Below are positions 5,801 through 55,831 of a stretch of DNA of 64,000 nucleotides, one piece after another. Below the pieces are notes generated by a model. It saw nothing but the letters and a program-made list of their open reading frames with translations. It searched no databases and had not been told where the DNA came from. Source of the DNA: Yuukianura sp. NJ FZ-2021 (taxonomy: Eukaryota); contig CM102283.1 of the NCBI GenBank assembly GCA_046563655.1, forward strand, positions 744,001 to 808,000. The letters run 5' to 3'. The position numbers were made by a program, and so were the translations under genes. Position 1 is the first letter of the stretch; each line of letters opens with the position of its first letter.

Positions 5801-5933
5801 ATAATTTAAACGGGCTTCTCATCACAAAGTTTCTCCTTTTTTGATTCCCTCCAACCGCAACGACTACAGTTTGATTCCAAGCTTAAGCCTGACGGTATTT
5901 CTTTGCTAAATCTTGGTCTACAAATATTACAAA

Positions 5934-16880: not shown

Positions 16881-18631
16881 ATGGGAGCGACGTTGAGGTC
16901 ATTGGATGATTTGGAGAGGAGTACGGCGTGTCACGAAGGGCACATCACGTTAACGTATGAGCAGCAGGAAGAAGTGGAAGAGTCTGTCCTAAGGATGTAC
17001 AGAAAACGCGTCGATTGCAGCAACCCGAACTATCCTCTACTCGCAAGGGACAAGCATGTTGCCTATTTGACTCTCGGCTTGTCCAGGCTCTCGTCCAACT
17101 TTGAGGTGAGGCATTGAATTTGGTTTGAATTTATCGTACTTTCTATTTACCGGTACCTGTTGACTTTTAGGCTCTGGACAGCAGTCAGCCCTGGCTCTGC
17201 TACTGGATACTCCATGCCCTTAGTCTCCTAGATGTCAAACTCAGCCCAGACCAAAAGAAGAAAGTGACAACATTTCTAGCATCCTGTCAAGCGGATGATG
17301 GTGGGTTCGGAGGGGGACCGATGCAGATGCCCCATCTAGCAGCATCCTACGCCGCAGTGAATGCATGTGTCTGTCTGGAACATCCACAAAGTCTAGCCAT
17401 TATCAACCGGTGAGTTCAGTTTCAGTTGAAGGTGAAGACGGAATTTTTCATTATAACATTATAACATGAGACGACTCATTAATATAATGTGGACGATATT
17501 TGTACAGAGATCGACTACTGGAGTTTGTAGTTAACATGAAGATGTCTGATGGATCCTTCCGAATGCACCGTGGAGGAGAGGTGGACGTAAGAGCCGTTTA
17601 CTGTGCCGTCGTCGTCGTCAAACTGACGAATGCCTCGGCTCCACCTACGTTGTTCCAAGGCACAGCGGAATGGGTGGCAAGGTAAAGTCTCAGTTACTTA
17701 CAGTGTGGTGTAGTTAGGAGTCAGTTAGTTGTAGTTAGATTGTCAATTAGAAGAGTCATCTTTGAAACAAGTTTCATTGTGGTAGGTGTCAGACGTACGA
17801 AGGGGGATTCGGCGCGAGTCCGGGAATGGAAGCCCACGGTGGGTACACTTTTTGTGCCGTTGCTGCTCTCATCCTTCTCCGTCAACATCACCTCATCAAC
17901 ACCGACGCTCTTTTGAAGTGGCTGGCCTTCAAGCAGTTGCCCCTCGAAGGTGGCTTTGCGGTGAGTTTGAGTAGCTTCTGCTGAATTTAGTTCGGTCAAT
18001 AGAAAAGACGATCAAAGGCTTGAAACCGTCCTAGGAATAATAGGTTGATGTTTGATTTACAGGGACGGACGAATAAATTAGTTGATGGGTGTTACTCGTT
18101 TTGGCAAGGAGCCACGTTCGCCCTTCTCAGTCAGTGTGTGGAGCCTGGTGATTGTGTTACTGAAGAGGGGAACTGGCTGTTTCACCAGAAAGCCCTTCAA
18201 GAGTACATCCTCATCTGTTGCCAGTCTCTCCATGGAGGACTCATTGACAAACCCGGCAAGTATGTGTTCATTCTAAATCATAAAGTCAATTTCGCGACTG
18301 TTTTTTCACTTCTGCACTCCACTTGTTTTTATTTGAGGGCTCGTGACTTTTACCACACTTGCTACACACTGAGCGGTCTTTCTATTGCACAACAAGCTCA
18401 GGGATCCAGCACCATCCTCGGCAACCCCGCTAACGCGCTGGTAAGATTCCCGTTTAAGGTTTCTTTCTGTTCTTCTGAAGTAATTTAATGATATAATATA
18501 CGTTTCAGCGTCCAGTCGTCCCAGTTTTCAACCTGACAGTCGAAGCAGTATCCAAAGCACGGGAATATTTTTATGAAAACGATCCCAGCGTTAGTGCTTC
18601 AGTGGAAGTTGAAGAAGAAGAGATGAGTTGA
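16881..18631 (+). CDS. FNTB: Protein farnesyltransferase subunit beta; exons 16881-17105, 17171-17409, 17508-17681, 17786-17960, 18063-18259, 18338-18440, 18509-18631
   Basis: Motifs LDSSQPWLCYWILHAL, GGEVDVRAVYCA, CQTYEGGF..PGMEAHGGYTFC, GRTNKLVDGCYSFWQG, RDFYHTCYTLSGLS; GT-AG introns with consistent phases. Confidence 0.95.
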
Positions 18632-19530: not shown

Positions 19531-21826
19531 ATGGTATGCCTTAGCATGGTCTTTTGTAATATCTTTCCTATTTATTTAAATGTTGAATGTGTCCATTTTT
19601 TGTGCAGGCTGGTACCTGTGTCATCAGTAATTCGGGTGGAACGAGCCTCGCCGAAGGGAGCAACATCCATTTTAGTCCAGTTGACAAAAAGCCACTCTGT
19701 TCTTACTCAAACAAGCTCTGTCGTCAACGAAGGCTCAACGGTTACGGATTCTGCATTAGGTAAATAAGTACTAGGTAGAAAGCTTAATAACTATACCATA
19801 TAAGGGATAAGTCTTGTCAAGTACACCAAAATTAGATTTTCCGTTTTCTAACGTTTTGTAAATGTTTCTCCGTTTTGTAAATGACTTTTCTTTAAGGGCT
19901 AAAGCTTCAGTCCAAAATGCATGCAGAACGTATATGACCTTGACACTTGACATTAATGTCACTGTCGCATAGTTCTGCTGGTTTAGTGTACTTCCTCCAT
20001 TCTCTTCATTTCATTAAAAAGACGCTAATGTTTTCGATATTTCATCATTTCGTCCATTACTACATAGTAGAAAACTTTTAGTTTTCTTAAGCAAAGCCTT
20101 AATGCACCGCCTCATTATATTTTACTACATTTCTTCGGATTGAATAATTTTCTGTTGTCTCTCTCATAAGGCATATTTTGGAAGACAAGTCAGCTCCGTT
20201 CAAGCAATGCCACTTTGTGACAAGGAACAACAGCCAGAAATGCTTGAATGCCATTCCCAGGAACCAGGAGAGAGGCTATTGCCATAGCCACATGCAAGTC
20301 GCGGGTTTCATTCCTAAGACATCGAAGAAACCGAAGCAGGTCAAAGCATCTAATAATGCCCCCTCGCATTCCCAACGGCCGACTACACTTGCTATTCCAG
20401 CAAAAAGTGAGTCGGATAACTCTGATTGTATAATTTTAGTAGAAGAGGGAGACTCTAAAGGAACAACCGAACACTCTTCGAAATCAGTAACGAAGGCGAG
20501 GCCCAAGAAACTTCCATCTGCTGGGCAGTGCGCTGGGAAGGTCAGGGATTCAACCACGCCAACTCAAAGTCAAAGTTCAACCGTGACATTTCATCCCCTG
20601 CTGAACAAAAAGAAGAGTAAGTTGCGATTGAAAGGTAAGAACGCAGACTCCGTGCCAAATGGAGATGCGTTCAGGGAGTCGCTGACTTCGTCTAAACCTT
20701 TTGAACAACTCAAGACACTCATAATGTTGGAGAAGTTGCCGCGAGGAGGCAGTGGAAGCGAGTGGGACGGTGGAACAAAGTATTGCCATAGGATAGTTCC
20801 AGTCTCGACTCCAAGTGTGGATGGAAAGAAAGAGAAACGGGCAGATTTTTTAATGCGTGTTCGCCAGTCTTACCGGATCCAGTACGAAACACTTCGACGG
20901 CTGGCGAAAGAACGTCGAGAGGCAGAAAATCGTTCCAGTTTTCTTCTGAGGAAGTCACTCCTTGCTTGCGCTCGAATTGATCCCAAGAGATGCGCCTACA
21001 TTCTTAAAAACGGAGAAGATTTTAATGAGGCTGAGGTTGGCATTTGCGGAGAAACAGATTTGAAGCGAAGTCACCCAGGAAAACACTGCCCAAAAATCCA
21101 AGCAAGTGCAATTATATAAGATTTGTTAGTTATTCATTGCCTTGATTACTTTTGATTGAATTGAATTTTTTTTCGGTCTTTCGTTACAGGTAGATGATGT
21201 TGGATCCACTGCTCCACGCATGAAGATTCCGAAAGATGAGGATTTGAGTGCCCAATCTAAAGGGACTTTACATAATAGTACCATCCATCCTCCCCTTGCT
21301 GTTTCTTACTCCAGTCACACAAAGAAGGAACAAGAGGCGATATGTAACATCGTTCTGGACAATGTTGTACATGCTGGGACATCATCGAACCTTGCCACTA
21401 TAGGTGCCCCCTCGGATGGCACTTTCGACAATGCTTTCGACCACTCTCCGCATCACCCAGGTTCATTGTCTCATTCATTTCATATTGCAATTTTCATTTT
21501 CATCTTCAAACGGTGTTCAACTGGTTTTATTTACAGATTCCGACTTTGGTGATGTGGAAGAGCTCGAGAGGACTTTTGCTTTACACATTGACCCTGAGAT
21601 TGCGCATCAGGCATCATGTATCATGGAGGAGAATGGATTGACTGAGGAGGACTTTACAGATCTTTTCCCAGAAAGCAGACTCGGTGATCAGAAAGGAGGA
21701 ATAGGAAATGATCTTGTGGGCCTTGACCTAGCCACATCTACACTTGATGGAACAGACATTGACTACGCCATATTCTCCAACATCTTTCAGAGACCGTCTC
21801 CGGATTCACTCAGAAACACATTCTAG
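19531..21826 (+). CDS. INO80D: INO80 complex subunit D-like; exons 19531-19533 (ATG), 19608-19759, 20171-21035, 21190-21460, 21537-21826
   Basis: Spliced N-terminus [49 protein letters not shown]...YCHSHMQVAGFIPK matches the INO80D zf-C3Hc3H region as recalled; the first exon is inferred. Confidence 0.85.
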
Positions 21827-25791: not shown

Positions 25792-26182
25792 CAATGAATT
25801 ACAATGTTACGCTGCATATATTACAATGGGTGCAAGTTTAGTGTACTCCAACATTGTAAAGTACAACATTGAATTCAATTGTAGAAAAAAATCATAAACA
25901 AAACAAGATTATTGGAGAATTGTTACTATCTGTCTTAAGTTATTGTTATTTATTAATTTGACTATTTGACTCAATCTCTTGAACGATCTACTTATTCCCA
26001 GACATGGTGTACTGAAAGCTTCAGCGTCGCTGGATTCGAAAATCGAGATGGAGTTTTGTTCATTACTTGGTAAATGCAGTTGAAAGAAGAAAGAACTGAA
26101 TTAAAGATTTCTATTTTTCTAGTTTTGTCAAATCGTCAAATGATATATGTAACAATGCTTTCTGTATGTAGAGAATAAGGAA

Positions 26183-29100
26183 ATGTACCACAGAACATGT
26201 GTGCTCTGTTCCGGAAATGTGGATTTGGTGAACGAAGATCAACCGGACGACAAGACAGAACACCTAACCAAATTCATCCCACGTCTACTCCGTATTCAAG
26301 CACCGCCTGATTTAGTAAATGATCTCCCTAGAACTTCAGTTTGTTCAGGTTGCTCTGGGCTAGTCGAAGAAGGTCGCAAGATGTTACTCCAATTGGATCA
26401 AATCCAGAAGAAAATCGATGACATTTCCATATTACTCAAAGTCAAAATCATGGAAGGATTTGTCAGGCAATCGACCGCTTCTAATACTCAAGGCTACCCC
26501 GCCGTTCGAAAATTGACTGACAAAGTGAGGGGAAGCCTTGCCGGATGTAAGTAAAAACTTCTATTGCTATTTTACAAATGACTGTTAGGTTAATATTCTG
26601 AATTACTTTCATTAAATTCATAATTTCAGGCCTCAACTTGGGATCTGTGGTGAACAGTCTGGCAAGGTCGTCAGTTCAAACTGATACTAGCGAACAGAAT
26701 TCGGTTGCGTTAGACTCCGACGACATGAGTTTAGAGGCGGAAGATGCTGCAAGTTCAAATGATATTGACTACGGGGTGATACGGATGAGGTTGAAAGTTT
26801 CTTTTCGCCCGTGAATCATCAAACTGTATCTAACCAAGAAGCGGGAGGTGTTATTACTGGCATACCCAAGTCAGTGGGTCATCGGCGCACAAATTTGCAA
26901 GGAAAAACACCATTGGGGAGACCAACAATAATCAATCCCAAGGAATGTATATCTGTCCCATCATCTGCTGATGACGAGGGATTAAATGATGTCAGTGTAG
27001 TGCGCAAGCGTACCAGGAATCCAAATTTTACCGACGATGAAGTGTCAATACTGGTATCTGAGTACAAGAAACACAAAAGACGCAGTCGTGATCCAAATCA
27101 CCCTCAAAAGAGGATTGAGTGGGAAGAAATTGCAAAGACAGTTCACAAACGTTCGTCTTCCCAAGTTTGCCGTACCGGGGGACAATGTGAACGGAAGATT
27201 ATTGATATGAGGCATCGTCCTATTGGCCTTACGCATTTACTAAAAGATGACTGCGATTACAGTTGGAAGACATCTGATGGAGAAGGTATATTATGAATGT
27301 AAATAAGCATCTTTTTTGAAAGAAATATTGAACTTTTATTGAGTTTGTTTTCAGACAATACTACAGACGATGATAAAGACAAAGACGAAGATGACAACGA
27401 CGACGCAGTGTTGAATCGAGTAGATGACGCAGAGGAAGACGTAGAAGAAAATACTTCACTTGGTTTTGCAGAAGAACGGCAGTCGATTGAATTTACAGAG
27501 GAAATTTTACTACTGGTAAAAGAGTACCAGGAGCACATACGACGGTGCTCTGACCCAGATGACCCCCAGAACGCGATTAATTGGGCGGAAATCGCACAGG
27601 CAGTTTCTACTGGATCATCTTCGAAGCTTCCATGCACGGCAATCCTGTGTAAAAGAAAAATTATGGACATGCAGAGGCGTGGAGATCTTGTGATATTGCG
27701 TCAAAATACAAATATGAACACTCCTCGTGAAGCAGGTAAGCATCACTTACATCACAAACAGGCCGATAGTTTCTTTTTCATTTTCTACCCACTTAAAGTT
27801 TCACTTTCAATCCAACCTTTAGTGAACATTATGTTAGATGGTGATTTCGAAATGGATCAAAGCAGTCATCAAGACTACAGGGATGACGATGATGCAGGAA
27901 TGGAGCTAGCAGCGGAAAGTTCAGAGTTAAAGGTTCCAGAGAAAGTCCGACTGGGCAGCAAGAGGATACCAAATTTTATGATCGATGAAGTTGCAATTCT
28001 TGTGTCCGAGTACAAGAAGCACCTTAGAAGGAGTGCTGACCCAGATCACCCTCAGGAGCGGATTGATTGGAACAAAATTGCGGAGGAAGTTTTCACTCGT
28101 TCCAGTTCGACATATCACCGTACGGCAAGGCAATGTAGAGTCAAAATATCGGACCTGAGGAGGAGAATTTGCAGGGGATTGGACGAAGTTATAGACGATG
28201 ACAAAATTGTGAATGCTACACACGACCCAGGTGAATCGCCAACACACCTTGTATTTTTTTTAGAATTCAAAGCACTGTTAATCTGTGTTTCAGAAGAGGA
28301 TAGAACTACTATCAACAAGAATCATGCGAGGTATCAGATTCGACTTGATGTAGATATTCAATCTGACAGCGGAACAGGTAAATTTTTAAACGAATCGGCA
28401 CTTTTAGTAGTTGTTGTTCTTTTTCTTTAATTCTTTTGTGGAAAAATTAAGTCTTCCTTTATTTTTTTTCTATCAGATGACTTCACGGAGGATCAAGGTA
28501 ATGACGACGATATTACGAACTCTGAGAATGCGGAACAACATAAGGAGTCGGAAGGGAAATTGAGAAGGAAGCCTAATTTCGGCAAAGATGAAACCGATAT
28601 ACTAGTAAAGGAGTATCGGAAACACTTGATACGGTGTGCTGATGTAATCGACCCGCAGAAGACGGTTGACTGGAACCAAATTTCAAAGGCAGTTTCCATA
28701 CGTTCGTCTTCAAAAGTCTATCGCAGTGCGCGGAATTGCAGAAGGAAAATAGTAGATATGAAGCATCGCGGACAACTAGTGGTATTGGGAAATAGCAAAA
28801 CACCAACTACTCAAGGAACAGGTAACGCCTTACAGCATTATCGTTAATAGAAATTTTTTTTGCTAATAAATATGTGTTGTCAAATCTAATCATGTGCTGA
28901 TTGGTGTTGATTTCAGATGATAATTCCTCAGAAGCTCAGCATCTGGACCAGATTGATGAATATGTCGACGATTCGGAGTTATTAGCTGATGACATGGAAG
29001 TAAACGATGGCTCTGTGGCGAAGCGAATGAGAATGCCTAATTTTATGGCCGATGAGGTTGGAATCTTGGTTGCTGAGTACAAGTTACAGTTAGTTGTGAC

Positions 29101-30484
29101 ATCTGACCCAAGTCACCCTCAGAAAACGATTGACTGGGACAAAATTGCCGAAGCCGTATCTACTCGCTCCGTGTCAACATTTCGACGTACAGCGGACCAA
29201 TGTCGGTCGAAAATTACGGACATGAAGAGGAAGACTTGTACGGGACTGGATGAGGTCATAGATGATGACAAGATTTTGAAAAGTGCTTCTGAAGCAGGTG
29301 AATTTCTAAAGTTGTTCACATGAATGCAAAGTTTATTTCAAAAAATTAATTATATGATTCTTTTAGTCTATGAAGTGATGCTGCCCAACGGGAATTTCTC
29401 ATTAAGAAGATTCGTCGTCGAACTCGTACGTTGTGATCATCAGAAGATTCCAGTATTTCCAGTTCGAGAAAACACCAAGAAGAAACTGATGAATCAAAGA
29501 ATCAAGGCGCTCCGGATTTTGGCGCAAAAGAAGAGGCTAGAGCAGCAACGGAAATTGAAATGTTCATTCTGCCCCATTCAGTTTCCTACTCGTCATCTCT
29601 TGTATCGCCATCAAACCGTGGCTCATACACATCCAATATCAGGGGCTAAATTGACCTATTTGTGCTCATTCGATGGCTGTCACGAACGTTTTGCTTCAAC
29701 CGGCAACCTTGAGCGCCATCTCATCAACGTTCATGAATCACAGCTTGCCTACTTTTGTGACCTTGATAACTGTGCCAGTGGATTCTGCACAACCGTAGCC
29801 TTGGAAGTTCACAAACGAAGGCGCCATGATTCATCCTTGAAAAAGTTTCGCTGTGACGTCTGTGGCCGTGCTTTTATGACGGAAGACGGTTGTGCTAATC
29901 ACATGCGAAGTCACAAGGAGAGAAAACAGTTTCTCTGTGAAACTTGCAGCCAAGAGTTTCGCTCACAGCGGACATTGGAATCCCACCGAGGAAAAGAACA
30001 TGGAGAGACCTTTCCATGTCCAGACTGCCCGCAGGTATGTGCCAGTAGAGAAGCACTCAAGAATCACTGTATTGTCAGCCATTTGGAAGGCGGGAGAACC
30101 AAATTCCTAAGATACGTCTGCGCAACTCCAGATTGTTCAAGGAGATTCAGAACTCCTTCGTCGTTAAGATATCATACACAGAGGTTCCATTCAGGAGAAA
30201 AGAATTTCCAATGCGACAAATGTCCGTCGGCCTTCACATGTGAACGGAACCTTGTACGTCATACTGTACATACACATGGAGATACGAAGAAGAGGAAATG
30301 CCCGTACTGCTGCCGAGTGATGGGACAAGGAACGTTGCGAAATCATATCAAAGTTATTCATGAAAAGAGAACTGATATCAAATGTGACATTTGCGGAGAG
30401 GGATTTCCACTGAGAAAGTACTATACGAGGCATCGCGATCGCTGCCATCCGACCAATAACGTTCACAGTTCAACTGAAAACTGA
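26183..30484 (+). CDS. ZAD-like + 5x Myb/SANT-like + 10x C2H2 zinc finger gene, copy 1; exons 26183-26546, 26630-27285, 27355-27735, 27838-28230, 28294-28377, 28477-28821, 28917-29297, 29367-30484; +2 frameshift at 26773-26776
   Basis: N-terminal CVLC...CSGC; repeated R.PNF..DEV.ILV.EY..H....W..IA..V....RT..QC..KI.DM; 10 C2H2 fingers in the last exon. Exon 2 is 656 nt (not 3n) and hits TGA at 26812. Confidence 0.8.
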
Positions 30485-30693
30485 CCGTTGGGAATGTGAC
30501 GTTCACAACAAAGTAATTTTGTTTATCAAAAGTAAGATCTCATTTCTTTTTATTCCCACAACTTTCAGCAAAATAGCAATTGTAACTTTAACTACTCCTC
30601 TGGTGCAAACATTGTGGATCATCTTGATACTTCTAATTACAATAATTAATATTAATAATTACATAAAGTAAATAAGTCGTATTTTATTTGCTG

Positions 30694-30752: not shown

Positions 30753-31472
30753 TCCGGACTGATACCGTTGTTCTTTGAATTTGTGTTCATACTAGATTCT
30801 AGTTGAAGTTGAAATAAAATATGTAAGTATTTTTAAAAGGAAAGTGTGATATTCCACTCTAATTAATTGTAGAAATCTTGAATACGGAAATCACATAACT
30901 CCAACTTGGATACGCAAAGGACTCCGAGAATTCTGAGGATTAGTGCACCGCTGGTGTTTTCTTGTTGCCGATTTGAACCTAAATTACCTCCATTGTAACC
31001 ATACAGTCTAACCAGTGACGGCATTTTTGTCGTTACAACAATGTAACGGCAATTTAGGTCATCAATTTGAACCACACAATATAACCACCCCATGGTTACG
31101 CTAGCCTTCAGACGATTACAGGAATTGCAATTATTATATGGTTACACTGGGAATGCTACATTGGGTATAACGTCACTGTACTCCAACATACAATAGAGCA
31201 TTGAATTCCCCAAGAGTACACAAAAATCATAAACAAAAACAAGGTTATTGGAAACAGTTTGTTGTATTTAATTAGTATTAATTAGACTCAGTTTCTCGGA
31301 CGATCTGATTTATGGCAATGCTGTACTGAAGCTTCAGCGTCGCTGGATTCGAAAATCAAAATGGAGTTTTGTTCATTACTTGGTAAATGGATTTAAAACA
31401 GATTTAAAGATTATGATTTTTCTCTTTTTGCCAAATGATTAACAATGTTTTCGGTATGTAGAAAATAAAGAA

Positions 31473-34400
31473 ATGTACCACAGAACATGTGTGCTCTGTT
31501 CCGGAACTGTTCTGGATTTGGAAAATGAAGATGTACCGGATACAGAACACCTAATGAAATCCATCCCTCGACTACTCCATATCGAAGCACCGTCTGATTT
31601 AGTAAATGATCTCTCTCGAACTTCTGTTTGTTCGGCTTGCTCTGAACCAATTGGAGAAGGTCATAAAATGTTACTCCAATTGGATCAAATCCAGAAGAAA
31701 ATCGATGACATTTCCATATTACTCAAAGTCAAAATCATGGAAGGAATTGTGAGGCAATCCACCGCTACTAACACTCGATGCTACCCTGCCGTTCGAAAAT
31801 TGACTGACAAAGTGAGAGGAAATCTTGCTGGGTGTAAGTAAAAGTTAGTGTTGGAATTTTACCGATGATCATTGGGTTGACAACTTTCTGAATAACTTTA
31901 ATTTTCCCTTAATTTCAGGCCTCAACTTGGGATCTGTCGTAAACACACTAGCAAAGTTATCAGATAAAAGTGATGCCAGTGAGCAGAATTCGGTTGTGCT
32001 AGACTCTGATCCTCTGAGAACAGAAGTAGATACATCATATCATCTTTCAAGTTCGAATGATATTGAGTACGGTGATGCGGATGACGCTGGAGCTTTCTTT
32101 TCACCAGCGGATGATGAAAGTCCATGTAATGAAGAAGGGGAAGCTCTTACGACTGAGATACACAACTCAGTGGGTCATGGATATGCAACTTTTCAACAGC
32201 AACCGTTACTCGTGAGGTCACCAATCACCAATGCCAACGAACGCATCCATGTCACGTCATCTGCAGAAAACCTGGGATTAAATGATACCAATGCTCGACG
32301 CAAGCGTATCAGGAACCCAAATTTTACGCCTGCTGAAGTTTCAATACTTGTATCCGAGTACAAAAAGCATAAAAGGCGCAGTCGTAACCCAAACCACCCT
32401 CAAAAGAGGATTGAGTGGGAGAAAATCGCAAAGACAGTTCGCAAACGTTCGTCTTCTCAAGTCCGACGTACGGGGGAACAATGTGAAAGGAAGATTTCGG
32501 ATATGATGCGTGCTCGCTACGGCCTTGCCCATTTGCTAAAAGATGACAACGATGACATTTTGGAAACGGCTGACGATGGAGAGGGTAACTTAGAAAGGAA
32601 AGGTTTTGTTTTGAATTTTAAATAAAAATTAAGCTCTCATGATTTCTGTTTTTCAGGTAGTAATTCCGATGAGGATGAAGACGTTGACTCCCACCTACGA
32701 GGCGATAATGAAGGAAGCAGAGGTGATATTAGTCAAATTAAAATTACAAATATCACTACCGCAAATACCAGTAGCGGTACTTTGAGAGAACTCTTCAAGG
32801 ATGATGCGATTTTGAAAAATCCTAACGAATCCGGTAAGTTGAAATGTGTACAACCACTTACTACCGCCACTTAAAGGGAATATCAGAATTCCTTTTTCAT
32901 AAAAAAATTAGACTATATCTTTATGATCTTGATTTCAGATGATGATTCCAGAGACGATGACTGGAACCCCCGGGATGAAGACTGTGAAGATGTTGAATTG
33001 GAACACGCAGATGAAGCACAAAACAATACCAAACAGAATGTTGAATCTGGAGGCAGGAAAAGGCAACCCAATTTTACGAGGAAGGAGGTTATCACACTGG
33101 CTACAGAATACAAGGAACACCTAAGAAGGCGCTCCGATCCTAATCATTCGCAGAATAGGATTGAGTGGGATGAAATTGCAGAGATAGTGTACAAACGTTC
33201 GTCTTCGAAGGTTCGACGTACCGGGGAACAATGCCAACAGAAAATTAGGCATATGAAGGATAGTCGTAGTGGATTTCTACACTTGCTAAAGAGTGATTCG
33301 ATCCTGGAAGGTACTGATAAAGCTAAAACAGGTAATTTTTTTTAAATGTGTCAAGTTTCTCTTGCTATCACGTAGAGACTTTCATCGTCTTCCAGAATAA
33401 TTACTAAGGTTGCGTGTGTTATCTTTATCTCAGATGATTCCAATCAAGATGACTATGGAGAATTAAATACTACAGACGATGATTTGGAAGAAGATGTTTC
33501 ATTTGGTTTCGCCAAACGGAGGCAACCGAATTACTTTAAGGATGAGATTTCAATACTTGCAAGAGAATACCAGGAACACCTAAGACGCTGCTCTGACCCC
33601 AGCCACCCCCAGAACAGGATTGGGTGGGCAGAAATCGCAGAGGCAGTTTCTACTGGATCGTCTTCAAAGTTCCGACGCACGGCCCATATGTGCCAAAGAA
33701 AAATTATTGATATGAAGAACCGTGGAGATCTGGCGATATTACGAGGAAATAGGAAAATTAACACTAATGTTGAAGCAGGTAAGCATTGCACTAAACTTAT
33801 CAAGTGCTTCGTCATGTCTTAGTCAATGCAGTTAAAGAATTGAGTGAACTTTATTTCAGATGGTGAGTTGCAAATGGATCAGGAGAAAACTCGTATTGAC
33901 GACGTTGCAACGGAGTCGGCAGCGAGTGGTGTGGATATAAATGTTGTATATTCAGTTCGCGAGCACAGGAAGAGGTTACCAATTTTTAAAATGGATGAAG
34001 TCTCTATTCTGGTGTCCGAATACAAAAAACACTTGAGGAGTAGTGCCGACCCAGATAACCCGCAGGAACGGATCGAGTGGGACAAAATTGCAGAGGAAGT
34101 TTCTACTCGTTCCGGATCGAAATATCAACGTACGGCGGTACAATGCGAAGCCAAAATTAGTGAAATGAAACGAAAGATTTGTAGGGGTTTGAAGGAGCTA
34201 ATAGACGATGACAAAATTTTGAACAGTCCTCCTGAGCAAGGTAATTTCTAAAATATCCACGGAGGTAAATGGATACATTTGACGATTCCGTTTGCGTTGG
34301 AGACATATTATAACCAGTGCTCATTTTCTTTTCAGAAGATGATAGCATTCCTGTAGAGGATCAGTGGAAGTACTACATTCGACTGGACGAAGAGTGTGTT

Positions 34401-37270
34401 GACTCGGAAGCAATTGGAGACGACCTATTCGTAGAGAAAAACGTTGAATCAACACAAAAACCGAAGAGACCGATTTTCGTAATGAGTGAGATTACTATCC
34501 TGGTATCCGAATACAAGAAACATTTAAGAAGGTGCGCTGACCCACATCACCCCCAGAAGAGTGTTGATTGGAAGAAAATTGCAAAGGCTGTTAATTCTAA
34601 ATCTTGCTCAGAATTTCAACGCACCGAGGAACAATGTCGAAAGAAAATCAGTGATATGAGACGTCCACACAATGGTCTCGGAAAAATACAACTGCTAGAC
34701 GATGTTGCACTTTTGAATGCTGGTGGTGAAACAGGTAACTTCTAAACCAATCTTTGTTTTCTGATGTTCAAGATTCTGTTCACTATTTTTTTCTTTCAAT
34801 CTTTTTTTCTTTTTTAGATGAGTTTTTAGAGGAGCAGAGTGATGACGATAATTTGGAATCGACGACTGGTGACGCAGATGAAAAAAATGAATCTAAACGG
34901 AAGCAGAGAAGGAAGCCTAATTTTGCGAAGGATGAGGTGTCTATACTCGTAGACGAATATGGCAAACACTTGAGACGTTGCTGTGACTCACGTCACCCTC
35001 AGAAGACGGTTAATTGGGAGCAGATTGCAAGAGTAGTTTCCACGAATTCGGCTTCAACTGTGGAGCGCAGCGCTGAAAATTGTAACCAGAAAATTACTGA
35101 TATGAAGTGTCGTAAACAGCTTGTGATATTGCGAAACGATAAAAAACCAACACTTGCTACTGAGGAAGGTATGAACAAAACATCGTTAGTCGCCAAGCAT
35201 TTTTGTGGAATCAGATTACCTCTTACGAGGGAAACCTTTTGACGTGATCTCGGTAAAAATTACATTCTATTAGGCATGTCGAAAGAAAATTTCCGCAGTA
35301 GTTTCCGTTGCCAACGCCAAAAATTATATACCCAGACCTGCACTCGAAACCGTATCCCCGCCCCGCTTCAAAATATTGAGAAAATATTTTTTTATGTCGC
35401 ACTCCTCAACAGGAAACGTCCAGAATGTATGACATCCTAAACACGTTTTCTGCTGAAGAATTCGACATAAAAAATTTTTTTTTGTCGTCCGAAATGGAAA
35501 TGAAATGAAGTGGTGCCAGGGGTTCGAGCCCATGTGGGAGCAATTTTTTTGGCGTTGGCAATAGAAACTACTGCAGTAAACTTTCTTTTGACATACGGAA
35601 TATAACGGTAGCTTTCAGTTCAAAAGTTGATCACGTCAAATGGTTTCCCTCGTTAGTTGTGTTAACCATAACCTGAAACTGATTATGTTTTTGTTGTTTC
35701 AGATGACAATTTCGCACAAGCTCTGGACCAAGATGCCGAAAGTGTTAATGAATCGGGGTTTACACTTGATGATGTTGATTTCGAAGTAAATGGTGGCTCT
35801 TCTGCGCCCAAGCGAATGAGGATGCCAAATTTTATGGTGGATGAGGTGGCAATCCTGGTAGCTGAGTACAAGTTTCAGTTGATCCTGAGATCTGATCCAA
35901 GTAACCCACAGAAGAAGATTGACTGGAACAAAATTGCAGAAGCAGTATCTTCCCGATCTTCCTCAAAATTCCAACGTACAGCGGCCCAATGTCAATCGAA
36001 AATTACGGATATGAAACGGAAGACTTGCACTGGACTGGACGAGCTGATAGATGATGAGAAAATTTTGAAAGGTGCTTCTGAAGCAGGTGAATTTGGTGAA
36101 TGTCAAATCGTTTGTAAAATATTAAACAAAACACTAGCGTATTGCAAGGACATAACTTATTAATTAATTTTGATAGCCTACGAGGTGACTGTGCCAAACG
36201 GAACTTTCGTACTGAAAAGATTCAAAGTGGACCTCGTACGCTGTGATGGTGATGGACCGACGATTTCAGTCCAAGATATGAAGCGCAAAATGATGCATCG
36301 AAGGATAAAGTTGATCCAAATTTGGTCTCAAAGGAAGAGGCTAGAGAAAGAAGGAAAATTCAAATGTTCGTCCTGCCCTATGAAGTTTCCCTCTCGTCTT
36401 CTTTTGTATCGCCATCAAACCAAGGCTCATCCTATGTCTGGGACTCCGTTGACCTACTTGTGTTCTTTCGATGGCTGTGACGTACGTTTTCCTTCAACGG
36501 TAAAGCTTGAGCGCCATCTCATCAACACCCATGGATCAGAACTTGCCCATTTTTGTGACCTTGATGACTGTGCCAGTGGATTCTGTACAACTATAGCGTT
36601 AGAAGATCACAAACGAAGGCGCCATGACCCATCGTTCAAAAAGTTTCGCTGTGACATCTGCCCCCGTGCTTTTATGACAGCCAAGGGATGTGACGATCAC
36701 AAACGAAGTCACATGGATGGAAAACAGTTTCTCTGTGAAACTTGCAGCCAAGAGTTTCGGTCACAGCTTACATTGGAATCTCATCGAGGAAAAGAACATG
36801 GAGAGACCTTTCCATGTCCAGACTGCGGGCACGTATGTGCGAGTAGAGTAGCACTCAAGAATCACTGTATGGTCAACCATTTGGAAGGCGGGAGAACTAA
36901 ATTCCTAAGATACGTCTGCGCAACTCCAGATTGTTCGAGAAGATTCAGAACTCCTTCGTCGTTAAGATATCATACACAGAGGTTCCATTCAGAAGAAAAG
37001 AATTTCCAATGCGACAAGTGTCCGTCGGCCTTCACATGTGAACGAAACCTTACACGTCATACAGTTCATACACATGGAGATACGAAAAAGAAGAAATGCC
37101 CGTACTGCTCCCATGTGATGGCACATGCGGTGGCGTTGCGAAATCATATCAAAGTTATTCATGAAAAAAGAACTGATATCAAGTGTGACATTTGCGGAGA
37201 GGGATTTCCACTCAGAAAGTACTACACGAGGCATCGAGATCGTTGTCATCCGACAAGCGTTCAAAGTTGA
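31473..37270 (+). CDS. ZAD-like + 7x Myb/SANT-like + 10x C2H2 zinc finger gene, copy 2 (~1516 aa if all exons are used); exons 31473-31833, 31919-32584, 32657-32833, 32939-33331, 33434-33778, 33860-34240, 34336-34734, 34818-35168, 35703-36086, 36177-37270
   Basis: All internal exons are GT-AG, phase 1-1, lengths divisible by 3 and open; same domain motifs as copy 1. Confidence 0.85.
35226..35652. mobile_element. Intronic MITE with TTA target duplication (PIF/Harbinger-like; a mariner-type origin is not excluded)
   Basis: TTA|CGAGGGAAACCTTTTGACGTGATC ... GATCACGTCAAATGGTTTCCCTCG|TTA, plus internal IR gcagtagtttccgttgccaacgccaaaaa / tttttggcgttggcaatagaaactactgc; absent from the matching intron of copy 1. 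Confidence 0.75.
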
Positions 37271-37414
37271 ACTGAAAAGTGACACTTAGAGGCGGTCAAA
37301 ACTAAATAATTTGCTAATGAAGATCTCATCTCTTTTTATTTCCAACCACAACTTCTAGTAAAATTCCAACTGTAACTTTTACTCCTGAACTGACACAACT
37401 GCACGATTTTGAAA

Positions 37415-39147: not shown

Positions 39148-42100
39148 TCAGCTGACCTGTGACATGGAAGTAACTGAAGGGTCAATGCCCCATAGGTCAT
39201 ACCAAGGCCCACATAAGTTTCCTGTTCGTTCCGATTTTTGGTCCAATTTTGAATTTCGTTCCGGGTAGTAAAGTCGTTTTTGAATTTGGCGCCCGTATTC
39301 AAAAAGTGGCAGTTGAAATGTAGTTACTGGCCCTCGGCCACTCCCGGCATCACTTTCACTTGCAATTAACTCTAACGTATGAACTTCAGAACGAATTGAA
39401 CCTTTGACCCGCCGTCCACCTCCACTGCGCCGTCGCATTTCGTTTCTCTCAATATTGTAGTTCATGCGTGGTTCATCTTGTTCCGAAGTTCCCCGGCCAT
39501 AGTCGGGTTCACTCGGAACGATTCGGAGACTCTGCGATTTCATTCTCCGACCGAGTAGTCGTAAACTTCCTTTACTATTTTCAAATTGGCTTCTTCTGTT
39601 TTTTGATTGGTTTCCGTTTGGCATTTCCGATTCTCTGATTGGTGGCGGCGGAGGCGGGAAACACTCTTCTTCAACTTCTGTGCCTTCAATGAAAATGCTG
39701 CTCTGAGCATCATCTAAAAACTGATCTTCTTCAGCTTCCTCCTCTTCCAGATTTTGACTTTGGATTGAAGCTCCAGATGAGAAGCGCGGGAGTTGAGGCA
39801 GAGCTCTACTGCGCATTCGCATGTTGCTCGGGACAATTGGTGCCTCGGATGCAGAAAACGACTCCACCCGAAGCATGCGTTGACCTGGAGTGTGCTGTCG
39901 GCCTTTTTCGGATGCACTTCGTCTTACCGAACTGGAACTGATGGGAGGTGGAGGTGGCGGTGGAACGGACCTGCGCAATACGATACTGTTCCTTTCGTTG
40001 CTTTCCGACACTTCTGGATTTTCGTCTTTCTTGGGTCCCCGCCATGGCAGAGGGGGTGGAAGCGGGGGGAGGGGCGGCGGTTCCTTGCGGGGTTCTTCCG
40101 TCTGTGAATGCTGGGAGACTTTAATGGGCGGAGCTTGTGTTTTGTTGATCCGTGTGCAGTGACGTCCGGACGACTCTTTCAGTGGAGCAGAAGGAGGTGG
40201 ACGACGCGGTGGTGGTGGGGCGACGGGGGAGTTGAGCTGAACCACGGATGCATGCGAAGCCCAGAGGTCATCGGACTCACAAGAACCGGCAACCGAGATA
40301 GAATCGAAAGCTTGACCTTGCCGTTGCGGAAAGGCAGCGGGTGGAAGCTGGTGGGGATGTGTAGAGTTAGTGTCTTTTTTCCAAATTAAGGACTTGGTTC
40401 GACTGAGCAGTTTTTGTAAAGGACCGGCACTGGGAGAGCGGTGACTGCTTGTGGAGTTGTGGCGAGTTGCTCTCGTGGAGCGGGTCAAAGGTCGACCTCT
40501 GTGACCTCCTTCGTCATGCGCAGAAGCTTCGGAAATGTTTATAAAGCTCTGGGCTCTGCGTGGTTCGGGAATTCCTTGGTGCTTCATTCGTGCTGACTCT
40601 GATTTGTGATATTTCTCCATCAACCAAGCGTCGCCAGATTTCAAAGTGCCACTGATTTTGTTTGTCAAAGTTGAAAAAATGCAAACAAAAATGAAACGAA
40701 AAACAAAAACAAAATTAAAGCAAACGCAATCAAACTTTAAAGCAAAACTCAGAAATTTAACGAAAACAAAAAAAAATTTTTTTTTTGAGAATTTACCTAG
40801 CCGAATTTGGTTCGTCTTCAGAGTAGTCGATTTCTGGTTGCGGTGGAGCCTTGTGAATGTCATTGCTAAATCCGCTGTCATTGCTGCTGTGTAGAGAATC
40901 TGATGCTCTTCCATTGCTATTTCCACTTGGCGTCTGCGTACTAATTGACACAATTTGATTCTGCCCAGAACTCTTGGTCATGCCTTGCTCTTTGTAGGGC
41001 AGCAGAAAACCGTTGGGGAGCGGTGGAGGAGGCGGTGGCGGCATGGGCCCTTCAAGGGCCTCACAAGAAGATGTTGTGGCTGGAGACTCTGGACCCTCCG
41101 TGTACGCCACTGGAAACCAGCCTAACTTCTGTGTCCGAAGATTCTCACCATACTGCCACCCTTTACTCCGTTCACCTACAAAAAGCAGCAGTTTCAAAAA
41201 ATCCAAAATTGGGGGGGATCAATTTTTGAAAGCAATACCGATGAGAATGATGATGTCGCCTTCTAGAAATGACAATTGGTTGTCACCGCTGGAGAGGTAC
41301 GCGTAAAGTGCTTTCACGACGCTGCTCATCCCACCTAATTCATTTGGCACTGCAAGCGATTTGGGACGCTGGAGCTGCCCAGCTCTGCTGCCGTCTCCCA
41401 TCAAAGGTGGAGAAAGTTGACCCGTATAAGATGGCACGAGACTCATCTGACCTCCGTTCTTGTCGCTCATGGCCAATGACAGATCAGATTTGGCACGACT
41501 CATGGCGCCCATGCGCGGTTCTTCCTCTTCGTCCACACTTTCAAGCATCTCTGCCCCCTCCATCGACTTGCTCTTGCGCAGACGCTGTTGACCTGAACAG
41601 CAGTTTGGATCTTCCCGCCCATTTCCTCTAGGGGTACAATAAATACAGTCGTCCTCGCTTCCCTGTAAAAATGGAAACAAAATATTAAAAGCATTAAGAA
41701 ACTGTAAGAAGATTACTCATTCAAATCTAGAAATAATCTTATTTAATTTAAAGAACTAAAAGTTTTTAATTTAGTTTTCCAAGTTCAAGATAATTTGAGT
41801 TCAAAACCTTCTGCAGACGATTGATGAGCTTATTTTGCATTGGCGGGGGGAGTACTTCGCGTGACCTTGAGACTTGCATCCATTCGTCCAGACTATCCCC
41901 CAGCAGGGAGTTCCCCTTGGAGTAGAATGCCAAGTAGTGCTTGGCCAACGACGCTTGTCGTTCCAAAATAAATCCATACCGCCGTCGCTCCTCAGTTAGC
42001 GCCTTAAATTCAAAACAAAATACATAGTTTTATTACTCTAATTTTTTATGTCATACAACGATGTAACGATGTCATATTTCACATCGAATGCAAGGCGTCT

Positions 42101-48900: not shown

Positions 48901-49541
48901 CTCTTTTTGGAAAACACAGAAGCATTGAAAATTAATGGAATGCAATGAAATGATCTTTCAATTTTTGTGTAGACTCGCCCACTTCTAGTTTTATCCATTA
49001 GTACATAAGTGCTGAATTGCTTTCGGTTAATGTAGGAATGCTAAATGTCTTTTGATTGAACCACTTGAGTGTAACCACCGAAGCGAATATTTGTAATTTT
49101 TGTGACGCTCATAGATCAGATTTGTTTCAAATCGTTAAGAGTTCTATCGGGGGCTTCAGAAATGCATGAGTCAGTGCATCGTTGGAGCTCGCAAAGCCAC
49201 AAAAAGTGTCACTTTCTGTCTTCTTTCAAAAGTAAAGTATAACTCGTGTGTCGTCTTAAAGTTATGAAAGTATGGTTTTGCTACCCTAACTCCTGTTCAA
49301 GGTCCAAGGATCACAGTCCCTTTAAAATTTTCTTCGTCGTTCGTTATAAGTAGGCGGGCACAAATAGTCACTTCGTTCTCTCAGTCTTATCTTTCCGTTT
49401 GTACAAGTTCGTCCATTCTAAGATCCTAACCTTACATAACCAACTACGTAGATCCTGTTCACTTGAGTGGGAGGATTGAGAACGTGAAGTTGTGTTTGAA
49501 AGTAAGGGCTGGAGAAATTGAATTTTGAACAAAAAGCAAAC

Positions 49542-50324
49542 ATGTCAGAGGTCACGTCAAAACTGGAAGTGGATACAGATCATGTAGTGAGGTTGAACGA
49601 CCGAAATTTTCTTGTCTGGAAATTTCAAATGAGCATAGTATTGAAGGCCTCCGGACTTTGGAAAGTTGTTAGTGGGGAGGAAGTGGCTTCAAGCGACATT
49701 TGGGAAGAGAACGACATTTGTGCGCAGGCGCTCATCATTCCAACGCTGGACGACAACCAAGTACTGCTTGTCTGTGCCTGCAAAACGTCCAAGGAAATTT
49801 GGGATAAGCTGACTACTATTCATGCAGACACTTCACATATGAACAAGACGTACAACTTGACGAAATTTTTCCAGTACAAACCCAAGCCTGGTGCGTCGCT
49901 GCTCCAAATCTACTTGGATGTGGAGGAAATTGCCAACACTTTAAAGGAAATTGGAAGTCCACTGTCAGAGACCATGGTGGTGGCAAAAATACTTTGTTCT
50001 TTACCAGAAGAGCACACGACATTCAGGCAGGAGTGGGACTGGGAGACTACCGGGGAGCAAACAATGGTTAATCTACTGTCCAAAATAAAGAAAAAGGAAT
50101 TGGAACGGCAACTTCAACCGAAAAATGTCAGACGTATGACGGGATTGGCTTTCAGATCAGAACCGCAATCCACACGCCAAAACCAAGGGAAACAATGGAA
50201 CAAAAAACATGGCTGTGCAATTTGTGGAAAACCCGGGCATTGGAAGAACGATTGTCCAGGAAATGGAAGCAACGGGGGTGGTTCTTCAGGCAACGGCTGG
50301 CCGTCATTTGGAGGCGCATATTAA
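49542..50324 (+). CDS. Intact gag-only ORF of Ty1/copia type (260 aa), candidate domesticated gag
   Basis: RLNDRNFLVWKFQM..VLKASGLWKVV, ACKTSKEIWDKL, MVVAKILCSLPEEH..F..W and CCHC knuckle CAICGKPGHWKNDC, then a Gly-rich tail and stop. No protease/integrase/RT downstream; ATTAAA at 50407. Confidence 0.8.
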   Translation: MSEVTSKLEVDTDHVVRLNDRNFLVWKFQMSIVLKASGLWKVVSGEEVASSDIWEENDICAQALIIPTLDDNQVLLVCACKTSKEIWDKLTTIHADTSHMNKTYNLTKFFQYKPKPGASLLQIYLDVEEIANTLKEIGSPLSETMVVAKILCSLPEEHTTFRQEWDWETTGEQTMVNLLSKIKKKELERQLQPKNVRRMTGLAFRSEPQSTRQNQGKQWNKKHGCAICGKPGHWKNDCPGNGSNGGGSSGNGWPSFGGAY

Positions 50325-53758: not shown

Positions 53759-54470
53759 ATGGAAAATTTAACTACAGATATTTTAGATGAAATTTTCCTA
53801 GGTAATATTTAACTTTTAACGATTTAACCAATTTTAAAATAGCAGTAACAACTTCAGACTCTTCATTCTTAAAAGATTACACTCTAAATGTTTTTGAAAA
53901 CTCTCACGAACAATTAAAAAATCATTTACCAAATTTAGCTATTTCACTTTCTTATGTATTCATAAGAACTCATCAGTTTGTTGGATGTGCCAACATCTTT
54001 ACTAAATCATTCTTAGAAACGTTATTAAAAGATTTGTTTAAATCTACCCTTAATAAGTTATTACTTGAGACACAGATTTGTTCAAGTTCAACTCGCATTG
54101 AAGCAACTAAATTTCGCGAATTAGACAAACACTGTAGGAATGTTCTTGCTAAGAAATTTTTTATTCGTTTCCACAAGGAAATTCGAAATAAATTCTCATA
54201 TTACAAGTTAGAACAAAAATTCTGAACAAATGAATGAATTAGATTTCCCTTTTGTGGAAGAAATTTTATCAATTCTGACATCACAAGATATTATAAATTT
54301 CTATTTGGCCCTTCAAAATAATAAATTCACAAATTTACAAGTTATCATAACTACAAACTTTTAGCAATCAAGGATCAACTTTTACAACACACTGCTACAT
54401 TAAGTGCAAATCTTCGTGTCTTACGAAAATTCTACGACTATTTTTTGGGATTTCATTTTAACAGAAAAGG
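53759..54470 (+). pseudogene. Two tightly packed, decayed AT-rich ORFs with F-box-like N-termini
   Basis: MENLTTDILDEIFL..TFNDLTNF (53759, frameshifted, continues to stop at 54225) and MNELDFPFVEEILSILTSQDIINF (54230); 4 nt apart. Confidence 0.35.
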
Positions 54471-55831
54471 TTAGGTGTATCAAAGGAAGTTCAACAGTTC
54501 ACGCCCAAATTGCAGTAACCGATGCCTTATACGATGGCTTTCGCAGAAACAAAGTCTGCGCTGTCATAACTCTAGATTTATCCAAGGCTTTAGACCGGAC
54601 CATCTTACTTGAAAAGCTGTCATGGTACGAAATCGAAAGCATATGGTTTTCCTCCTATCTATCCGTACGGAAACAATTCGTCTCGCTGGGAGGGGAAAGA
54701 TCCGGAAACATAGACATTAAGCGTGGAACTCCTCGAGGCGGTATACTTTCACCTCTACTTTTCACCATCATGGTCAACGATCTCTACGAGTTCTACTGCA
54801 ATTCCAACAATTTAGCAAAAATCTCCTCATCATGTTTGCTGACGAAAACACTACGGCAGTTACAATAGACCCAAGCACGCTTCAACAATTTAAACAAGAA
54901 GTTGTAGAAAGTTTAGAATTTGTTGTTAAGTGGATGAATGAAAATCAGTTGAACATTAACCAAACTAAAAGTGCAATTCTATTATACGCTAAACCCAGTA
55001 TCCTAAAAAGTGTCGGCGCAATGAACTTTCTAATTTGCGGAGAAAGTGTTAAATCAAGAAAACAAATTACCAGCTTAGGATTAATTATTGACAGTTCAAT
55101 GAATTGGGACGCTCACATTACATCCATTTCTAAGAAAGCACTCAGTGTCATAGCGTCACTCTATTCTCTGCAAAGATTTCTTAATATGAAAAACCGGAAA
55201 ACTATGATGGAAGCGTACGTTCTTTTCAAAGTTACTAATATGTGTGAGATCTGGGGAAAAGCAAACAAGCAACACGTTAAAACTGTTATTCGTTAAATAG
55301 GTTAACTGTTATTCGGAAAAAGTTATTCGTTCTGCAGGAAGATTTGTTCTCAACGTGAAGAAATATGATCCAGTGAAAGTGAAGGTTACGACCGAATTTG
55401 AACTGGCTCTTTCCAAAACACCTAACTGATTTCCGTATTACATGGTTAGTTTCGACTATCATCTCAGGGAACTGCCCAAATTATTTTACAAATTATTTCA
55501 GCGAAGTCCAATTTACTCAATCAAGCACAACTACTAGAAAGAAAACTCATGTAGCAAATTTAAACCGGAGAATTCATCCTCAATCCTTCAAAACAAGTGG
55601 TTTTCGCAAGTGGATGGAGACGGAAGAGGATGTACGACGTCTTCCCAATCCAACTGCAATAAAAATGAAGCTTAAGGACCATTTTATGAAAGCTCAACAC
55701 AATGAACTCGAACGCCGAAATGATGTTGTGGAAGAGGACTGACAATTGAATATTTGTATTAATAATACGCAAAAAACCTATTTTAGCAATGAAAGATTAA
55801 GTAAAGTAAAGTGTCAAAGAAAGTAAAGTGT
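54470..55831 (+). mobile_element. 5'-truncated decayed non-LTR retrotransposon (CR1/L2-group RT)
   Basis: STVHA..VTD, LDLSKA, WFSSYLS.RKQFV, RGTPRGGILSPLLF.I.VNDL, MFAD, WMNENQLNIN.TKS, LGLIIDSSMNW..HI; frameshifts; short (AAAGT)n tail near 55800-55830. Confidence 0.85.

Follow-up and report, generated by a model that had tools for sequence, protein, structure and literature searches.

The SCAN domain oligomerises, and in ZSCAN20, ZSCAN20-like and ZSCAN29 an N-terminal oligomerisation domain of this kind precedes Myb/SANT-like domains (two in ZSCAN20/29) and a C-terminal array of C2H2 zinc fingers. SANT domains inside SCAN zinc-finger proteins are described for all three (PMC3706607), and ZSCAN20 is listed among putative Harbinger Myb-like derivatives (PMC9392472). 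In Drosophila, Mzfp1 has a single N-terminal C2H2 finger, two tandem MADF domains and, at the C-terminus, six clustered C2H2 fingers. According to its authors this structure is unusual and common to a small group of C2H2 proteins, the C2H2 cluster is enough for specific binding, and the negatively charged MADF domain may recruit transcriptional complexes (PMC11229372). The classical insect ZAD-C2H2 proteins (such as Pita, Zw5, ZIPIC and M1BP) combine an N-terminal four-cysteine domain with a C-terminal C2H2 array and have undergone tandem gene duplication, and their ZADs form homodimers (PMC7913770). We have analysed a window of 64,000 nucleotides (nt) from Yuukianura sp. NJ FZ-2021 (contig CM102283.1 of assembly GCA_046563655.1, positions 744,001 to 808,000), numbered here from its first letter, which holds two genes in tandem on the forward strand, gene A (26183-30484) and gene B (31473-37270). 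We think it likely that they are paralogues in a lineage-restricted family with a ZAD-like head, an array of Myb/SANT-like domains and C2H2 fingers, and that such a protein would be a dimeric, multivalent chromatin- or DNA-binding factor.

Gene B is like the ZSCAN proteins in the order of its domains, and it is on that order that we liken them. It differs in having a four-cysteine ZAD-like head, not SCAN, a family that gave no match at an expect value (E) of 1 or below in a Pfam scan of the ten gene B exons, and in that it and its relatives carry seven (or five, or three) Myb/SANT copies, each on its own symmetric exon, rather than two. With Mzfp1 it shares tandem domains of the Myb/SANT superfamily ahead of a C2H2 cluster, but its repeats are Myb_DNA-bind_4/5 domains rather than MADF, they number seven rather than two, and the head is ZAD-like rather than a lone C2H2 finger; only one Myb exon in seven matched MADF (PF10545), with an E of 0.53 and a score of 11.1 bits, short of the cut-off of 22. 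The defining head or domain failed its Pfam test in each case, and gene B is an analogue, and not a member, of the ZSCAN and MADF groups. The known ZAD-C2H2 proteins have a linker between head and fingers; in gene B it is replaced by a growing array of a second, putatively DNA-binding module, and the head, unlike a classical ZAD, stays under the zf-AD cut-off. Full-text literature searches for ZAD with Myb/SANT-like domains, or with exon duplication, turned up no account of this plan. An earlier sequence-only reading of the window knew of none either, which is borne out by literature and protein searches as regards a ZAD joined to a Myb array and is too broad as regards the wider plan, since the analogous ZSCAN20/ZSCAN29 and Mzfp1 plans are in print. 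What is new is this domain form and its exon-by-exon growth; related combinations of Myb/SANT domains with C2H2 fingers are already known.

The gene B model was obtained by searching for an exon between AG and GT with each of eight given lengths and an open phase-1 frame. Each length matched once except 381 nt, for which two candidates lay 15 nt apart; 33860-34240 was picked on its polypyrimidine tract and GGTAAT donor. Spliced together, the ten resulting exons come to 4551 nt, or 1516 codons and a single stop at the end, and all nine introns are GT-AG and in phase 1, interrupting the frame after the first codon base. Internal exons 2-9 measure 666, 177, 393, 345, 381, 399, 351 and 384 nt, every one a multiple of three and of phase 1-1, exactly as the sequence-only reading had it. 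The introns are 72-105 nt long, with the exception of intron 8, which reaches 534 nt because of a nested palindromic insert resembling a miniature inverted-repeat transposable element (MITE); this insert (35222-35656, no strand assigned) is 435 nt long, has three nested inverted-repeat pairs with outer arms of 28 nt that are 93% complementary, and is the sole copy within the window. The gene A counterpart of intron 8 has 95 nt and lacks the insert.

Evidence for the nature of the internal exons comes from Pfam. Scanned exon by exon, with curated cut-offs of 27 bits for Myb_DNA-bind_4 (PF13837) and 21.7 bits for Myb_DNA-bind_5 (PF13873), exons 2, 4, 5, 6, 7, 8 and 9 matched one or both families, and six of these seven (2, 4, 6, 7, 8 and 9) reached at least one of the two cut-offs. 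Domain 1 lies on exon 2 (31919-32584, 666 nt; PF13837 27.8 bits, PF13873 26.7 bits), where a long acidic linker precedes a core with an isoelectric point (pI) of 11.4. Each of the others likewise follows an acidic linker: domain 2 on exon 4 (32939-33331, 393 nt; PF13837 28.4 bits), domain 3 on exon 5 (33434-33778, 345 nt; PF13837 20.4 bits), domain 4 on exon 6 (33860-34240, 381 nt; PF13837 27.1 bits), domain 5 on exon 7 (34336-34734, 399 nt; PF13837 28.1 bits, PF13873 22.1 bits), domain 6 on exon 8 (34818-35168, 351 nt; PF13873 28.7 bits) and domain 7 on exon 9 (35703-36086, 384 nt; PF13837 29.1 bits, PF13873 25.3 bits). The linkers have a pI of 4.1-4.2 and net charges of -5 to -15; the 71-residue cores are basic in all seven cases (pI 9.4-11.4, net charge +4 to +14). 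Within gene B the repeats are 32-48% identical. Exon 3 (32657-32833, 177 nt) has an acidic linker and the tail of a repeat unit, no Myb core and no Pfam match; its tail aligns with those of exons 6 and 9, for which 1 and 3 of 300 shuffles, respectively, score as high, and exon 3 probably descends from a complete repeat unit whose core has been lost. Both family matches and charge profile thus agree with the proposal of seven exons each built of an acidic linker and one Myb/SANT-like domain. The consensus motif proposed with it (beginning R.PNF..DEV) has its residues in the right order, and the alignment shows that the spacing between EY..H and W had been compressed.

Structure prediction is consistent with the family assignment. 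An AlphaFold model of exon 9, computed on the alignment of 12 repeats, has a mean predicted local distance difference test score (pLDDT) of 71, with core blocks at 82-93, and shows three core helices (45-62, 74-84 and 93-104) and a fourth helix in the tail. When this model was compared with the PDB by Foldseek, the top match was the DNA-binding domain of Zeste (probability 0.98, template modelling score 0.65 on the target), and further top matches were the SANT region of EP400 (TIP60 complexes), the telomeric NgTRF/RTBP1/TRF1 and GT-1. All of these are weak matches (E at least 0.25). Three points count against the assignment or what we build on it: exon 5 scores under its Pfam cut-off (20.4 versus 27 bits), though it still fits the gene's own repeat profile; the Foldseek search of the PDB gave nothing at E 0.001 or below, its best E being 0.25; and DNA binding by the cores is inferred from their charge and family, while SANT-type domains may bind proteins or histones. 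A sequence search of the PDB with the Myb profile also gave no meaningful match. The description 'Myb/SANT-like' is sound at the family level, and the fold evidence is supportive but weak. It is conceivable that the modules are protein- or histone-binding scaffolds of the SANT type and that the zinc fingers alone read DNA, a possibility favoured by the presence of the EP400 SANT region and other SANT domains among the best fold matches. However, all seven cores are strongly basic (pI as above), the DNA-binding domains of Zeste, GT-1 and the telomere Myb type are also among the top fold matches, and Harbinger Myb-like proteins are reported to bind DNA (PMC9392472); we regard the scaffold role as rather unlikely and prefer extra DNA or nucleosome contacts as the predicted role of the cores.

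The evidence on the N-terminal head is mixed. Exon 1 (31473-31833) opens with the ATG, ends at a GT donor and encodes two CxxC pairs and then a long helix, a layout that stands N-terminal to the ten fingers and that suggests a ZAD-like, probable dimerisation head. The four cysteines (C6, C9, C53 and C56) are invariant in three of three homologues, and the helix at 62-100 follows the second pair in the head model (pLDDT 55). Two CxxC pairs some 40-50 residues apart are the typical ZAD spacing; in nine ZADs that we compared, the CxxC...CxxC spans are 49-56 residues. Among the Atlas language-model neighbours of the head, 19 of 30 fall within the zf-AD-bearing set (score 0.90). Predicted as a homodimer with zinc, residues 1-100 score 0.57, as against 0.02 for the best of three controls, and pass a mark that 21 of 30 solved homodimers attained but none of 23 solved monomers did; agreement between runs covers at least 96% of contacts, pLDDT is at least 73, and the interface is predicted along helix 59-98. 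Since solved ZAD dimers exist, this pass may reflect mere likeness to them or memory of them.

Several observations tell against a ZAD. The match of exon 1 to zf-AD (PF07776), which spans positions 4-71 of the 75 in the profile, has an E of 0.032 and 14.9 bits and does not reach the cut-off of 28; the head of gene A gave no zf-AD match at a limit of E 0.01, and that of L001, a metagenome homologue introduced below, none at E 0.1. Our own profile of nine ZAD sequences scored the head at only 7.2 and 4.8 bits in HMMER, with an hhalign probability of 2.7%, and the AlphaFold monomer is poor (pLDDT 55, residues 1-59 below 50). A search of the PDB by sequence with the head profile found no meaningful match. 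On balance we consider it likely that the head is ZAD-like and dimeric. The term used in the sequence-only reading is thus plausible only: the cysteines, the zf-AD-bearing neighbours and the predicted homodimer speak for it, and the Pfam hit is below threshold.

Exon 10 (36177-37270) holds ten C2H2 fingers, the number expected from the earlier reading, by the pattern C-x2-5-C-x9-15-H-x3-6-H, together with the stop codon; zf-C2H2 (PF00096) matches it at E 2e-17. The finger exon of gene A likewise has ten pattern matches (PF00096 E 1.4e-18).

Gene A came to light when a profile of the seven repeats was run over all six-frame open reading frames (ORFs) of the window. Five extra units were found at 26769-29320, all of them in gene A and none elsewhere in the window, so that the '12 domains' mentioned by the sequence-only reading are the seven of gene B and these five. 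The gene lies in tandem 5 kb upstream of gene B. Its ZAD-like head and ten C2H2 fingers enclose five Myb/SANT-like exons and, as a linker remnant, one exon of 84 nt; the exons are at 26183-26546, 26630-27285, 27355-27735, 27838-28230, 28294-28377, 28477-28821, 28917-29297 and 29367-30484. By blastn the two genes share four colinear blocks (25798-30596 versus 31133-37386) at 69-79% identity, and the blocks reach about 340-385 nt upstream of the start codons in both. The flank of gene B at 31133-31472 (forward strand), a putative promoter and 5' untranslated region, was thus duplicated along with the gene (block 25798-27303 versus 31133-32601, 76% identity). Exon 9 of gene B and exon 7 of gene A are 74% identical in amino acids; gene A lacks any counterpart of gene B exons 3 and 4, and of exon 7 it retains only the 84-nt remnant. 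We also considered the gene A ORF at 27303-28430 as an intronless fusion of two Myb domains and ruled it out: a canonical 102-nt intron within it simply stays open in frame.

In all eight segments compared by the Nei-Gojobori method, the synonymous divergence (dS) between gene A and gene B is 0.34-1.17 and the ratio of nonsynonymous to synonymous divergence (dN/dS) 0.21-0.45; therefore, the Myb exons have been coding sequence under constraint. Pooled over the five orthologous exon pairs, dN/dS is 0.23 for the Myb cores and 0.44 for linkers and tails. Gene A does, however, carry a break in its frame. When both copies of exon 2 are aligned as DNA, a G-run in gene A proves longer than that of gene B by two G (26780-26814, forward strand); exon 2 thereby measures 656 nt, not a multiple of three, and the shifted frame meets a stop at 26812-26814. 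The other 3.3 kb of gene A coding sequence is intact and constrained. The break may mark a young pseudogene, a homopolymer error in the assembly or an unrecognised splice.

A third member of the family, L001, is a 4015-nt metagenome contig bearing ORFs P0049 and P0050 that was fetched via P0049. It follows the plan of gene B, with a head, three Myb exons, a 99-nt linker exon and a ten-finger exon. The head, with its CxxC...CxxC layout, is 27% identical to that of gene B (E 4e-11), and the finger exons are colinear at 38% identity over 377 residues (E 3e-76). All three Myb exons lie above both Pfam cut-offs (29.0-38.9 bits), and the exons of 363, 504 and 99 nt are of phase 1-1. With L001, the order of head, Myb exons and fingers, which gene B links in one open reading frame, recurs for a second time outside that gene, as gene A already repeats it; this is the linkage the sequence-only reading had supposed. 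The head and finger array of the gene family are conserved and the Myb array is variable, at seven, five and three units. Two features of the contig fit this picture poorly: the first Myb exon, taken from the best acceptor (669-1144), is 476 nt long and not a multiple of three, with its upstream part in another frame, and the head exon starts at a phase-1 acceptor (181-200) with no ATG visible. An upstream exon could be missing from the contig. A metagenome scan with gene B exon 2 found no relative.

The frameshift in gene A and the frame problem in L001 could also be taken as signs that the locus is non-functional, a decaying pair of pseudogenes or a repetitive, transposon-derived array whose frames are open by chance or youth. 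The protein collections searched yielded no close relative with an annotation, and there are transposon remnants in the window as well as the MITE-like insert in intron 8, all of which would suit such a reading. Yet the frame of gene B is unbroken over its 1516 codons and ten exons with canonical splice sites, the divergence values given above indicate long-term purifying selection that is stronger on the cores than on the linkers, the plan is conserved in a distant organism whose fingers are 38% identical, and neither terminal repeats nor a transposase flank genes A and B. We find decay very improbable and retain the view that gene B is a constrained, protein-coding gene. Its transcript, exon use and expression are predictions from genomic sequence.

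How the array grew can be followed exon by exon. We built a tree of 41 domain cores over 77 columns, from the 12 units of the window, three of L001 and 26 from 13 chosen library proteins, keeping units with at least 55 profile positions covered. Five pairs of gene B and gene A exons are strongly supported (B2/A2, B5/A3, B6/A4, B8/A6 and B9/A7); B4 and B7 have no partner, and the deeper nodes are not resolved. These five pairs are also colinear by blastn, so that at least five units are older than the gene duplication, and the well-supported pairs rule out an independent origin of the A and B Myb exons after it. The two genes have diverged since then by whole exons. In L001 a more recent event can be recognised. 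Two copies of a unit of some 450-460 nt, offset by 453-465 nt, are 89% identical over 480 nt, and the duplicated stretch covers an exon, an intron and the start of the next exon; this is a recent tandem exon duplication. The array has been shown to have arisen, and still to change, by tandem duplication and loss of whole exons, as the sequence-only reading proposed from homologous repeats in the same phase, and the L001 pair, alike over exon and intron, supports that claim. Tandem exon duplication is also why nine of nine introns are in phase 1, a result far from chance for which no further cause is needed, and whole-exon duplication and loss explain why the length of every internal exon is divisible by three and the phase is always the same.

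The same symmetry invites a different interpretation, which the sequence-only reading proposed in its combinatorial form and in which the homologous Myb exons are cassette or mutually exclusive exons that yield many isoforms with subsets of the domains, or isoforms with only one Myb domain each. Any subset of the eight internal exons keeps the frame; the neighbouring exons 4-9 are homologous, share a frame and differ in length by at most 18 codons, features that serve as sequence criteria for predicting mutually exclusive exons (PMC3228551); and whole-exon differences among gene A, gene B and L001 have been tolerated in evolution. However, exon duplication necessarily leaves symmetric exons behind, and their symmetry is therefore no evidence for skipping. 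Each exon brings its own linker, linker first, as fits domains strung in series, and the linker-only exons (177, 84 and 99 nt) are intelligible as spacers but not as alternatives. Exon 2 joins one Myb domain to a unique 127-residue region, which disfavours alternative use, and in other taxa there are annotated proteins with three to six such domains in series. Alternative use of the Myb exons therefore seems to us unlikely, and by default we assume that the main transcript includes them all. The fuller proposition, a new ZAD-like-(Myb/SANT)n-C2H2 family whose array is both remodelled by exon duplication and loss and deployed by in-frame skipping or mutually exclusive splicing, we hold to be decidedly doubtful; on that view a single dimerising zinc-finger scaffold would be fitted with changing sets of additional DNA readers, which could for example track fast-evolving repeats or transposons.

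Relatives elsewhere are few and distant. Against 1.84 billion representative proteins, a profile of the 12 units gave 45 matches at E 0.001 or below, one at or below 1e-10 and none at or below 1e-30; 20 of the 45 were looked up by name, and 16, the long or multi-stretch ones, were scanned with Pfam. Myb/SANT-type families were present in 14 of these 16, C2H2 fingers as well in one (P0051) and zf-AD in none. The best match (P0045, XP_063234182 of the stick insect Bacillus rossius) has six Myb_DNA-bind_4 domains and an E of 2.9e-21 for the whole protein; P0051 (XP_070203696 of the snail Littorina saxatilis; E 2.1e-7 for the whole protein) has four Myb_DNA-bind_5 domains and C2H2. These multi-Myb proteins resemble gene B in being serial arrays of the same Pfam families, the snail's ending in C2H2, but they are distant from it (9-25 bits per domain) and have no ZAD-like head at a Pfam E of 0.001 or below. 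In the tree each protein's domains group with one another, so that the two arrays arose independently. A separate serial array with another head, TINF2_N followed by four to six Myb_DNA-bind_4 domains, is found in the pike Esox lucius and relatives (P0067, P0058 and P0076). The other matches are mainly single-domain proteins of fish and sharks or metagenome ORFs; of the single-domain proteins that bear a name, the closest come from fish and sharks and are called 'Myb/SANT-like domain-containing'. Word-index searches of longer proteins returned nothing for the 12-domain alignment, nothing at E 1 or below for the head alignment and, for the finger exon, 44 matches, the best of them 28-32% identical; these are zinc-finger proteins of a generic kind, and none is an orthologue. 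The ZAD-like-(Myb/SANT)n-C2H2 plan is thus missing from the annotated proteomes of the library; the word-index searches covered longer proteins, so that a shorter orthologue free of Myb domains is possible.

As to where the Myb domains came from, we take Harbinger Myb-like proteins, NAIF1 and MSANTD1-4 to belong to Pfam PF13837/PF13873, the families matched here. NAIF1 and MSANTD1-4 are described as Harbinger derivatives in which there is one Myb/SANT-like domain, of the trihelix kind (PMC9392472), and insects are reported to have MADF genes derived from PIF (PMC9710019). These proteins are single-domain and without zinc fingers, whereas gene B has serial domains and fingers. Of Harbinger-type signs we found neither a DDE transposase among the 33 window ORFs scanned nor terminal repeats around the genes. 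By analogy with MSANTD/NAIF1 and the insect PIF-derived MADF genes, a Harbinger origin of the gene B Myb domains, as raised by the sequence-only reading, would be a reasonable idea.

We suggest that the N-terminal four-cysteine head would probably bind zinc and form homodimers. Behind it the Myb/SANT-like (trihelix-type) domains are arranged as beads on a string, an acidic linker before each and one symmetric exon for each. The ten C2H2 fingers would provide sequence specificity, the basic cores could add contacts to DNA or the nucleosome, and the acidic linkers may serve as spacers or as partner-binding segments. If this is correct, the family would be the third independent case in which a dimeriser, Myb/SANT domains and C2H2 fingers are combined, after vertebrate ZSCAN20/29 and Drosophila Mzfp1, and three independent origins suggest that the combination is functionally favoured. 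At the level of exons the family offers a clean and still-active example of domain amplification: orthologous exons can be traced, one duplication stands at 89% identity, and coreless units survive as linker-only exons. If gene B is expressed, the contribution of serial Myb/SANT modules to a zinc-finger array could readily be studied in it, as could whether symmetric duplicated exons serve isoform diversity.

The remainder of the window has the following features. Rfam and transfer RNA scans of it found nothing. At 5910-8492 (forward strand) there is an 860-codon ORF with a hydrophobic N-terminus and several further hydrophobic segments, without a Pfam match at E 0.01 or below; it may represent a divergent gene for a membrane receptor or a channel-like protein. 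Two ordinary host genes lie upstream of the pair on the same strand, one represented by an exon of a prenyltransferase alpha-alpha toroid protein (18024-18485, E 4.9e-26) and the other by an ORF with a zf-C3Hc3H domain (20148-21119). Just downstream of gene B, on the reverse strand, ORFs of 609, 141 and 165 codons (39148-41716), matched only by an SH3 fragment, make up an unannotated multi-exon gene. Further downstream, retrotransposon remnants on the forward strand (49506-50324 and 54404-55296) are a gag of copia type that carries a zinc knuckle (E 1e-30) and pieces of reverse transcriptase.

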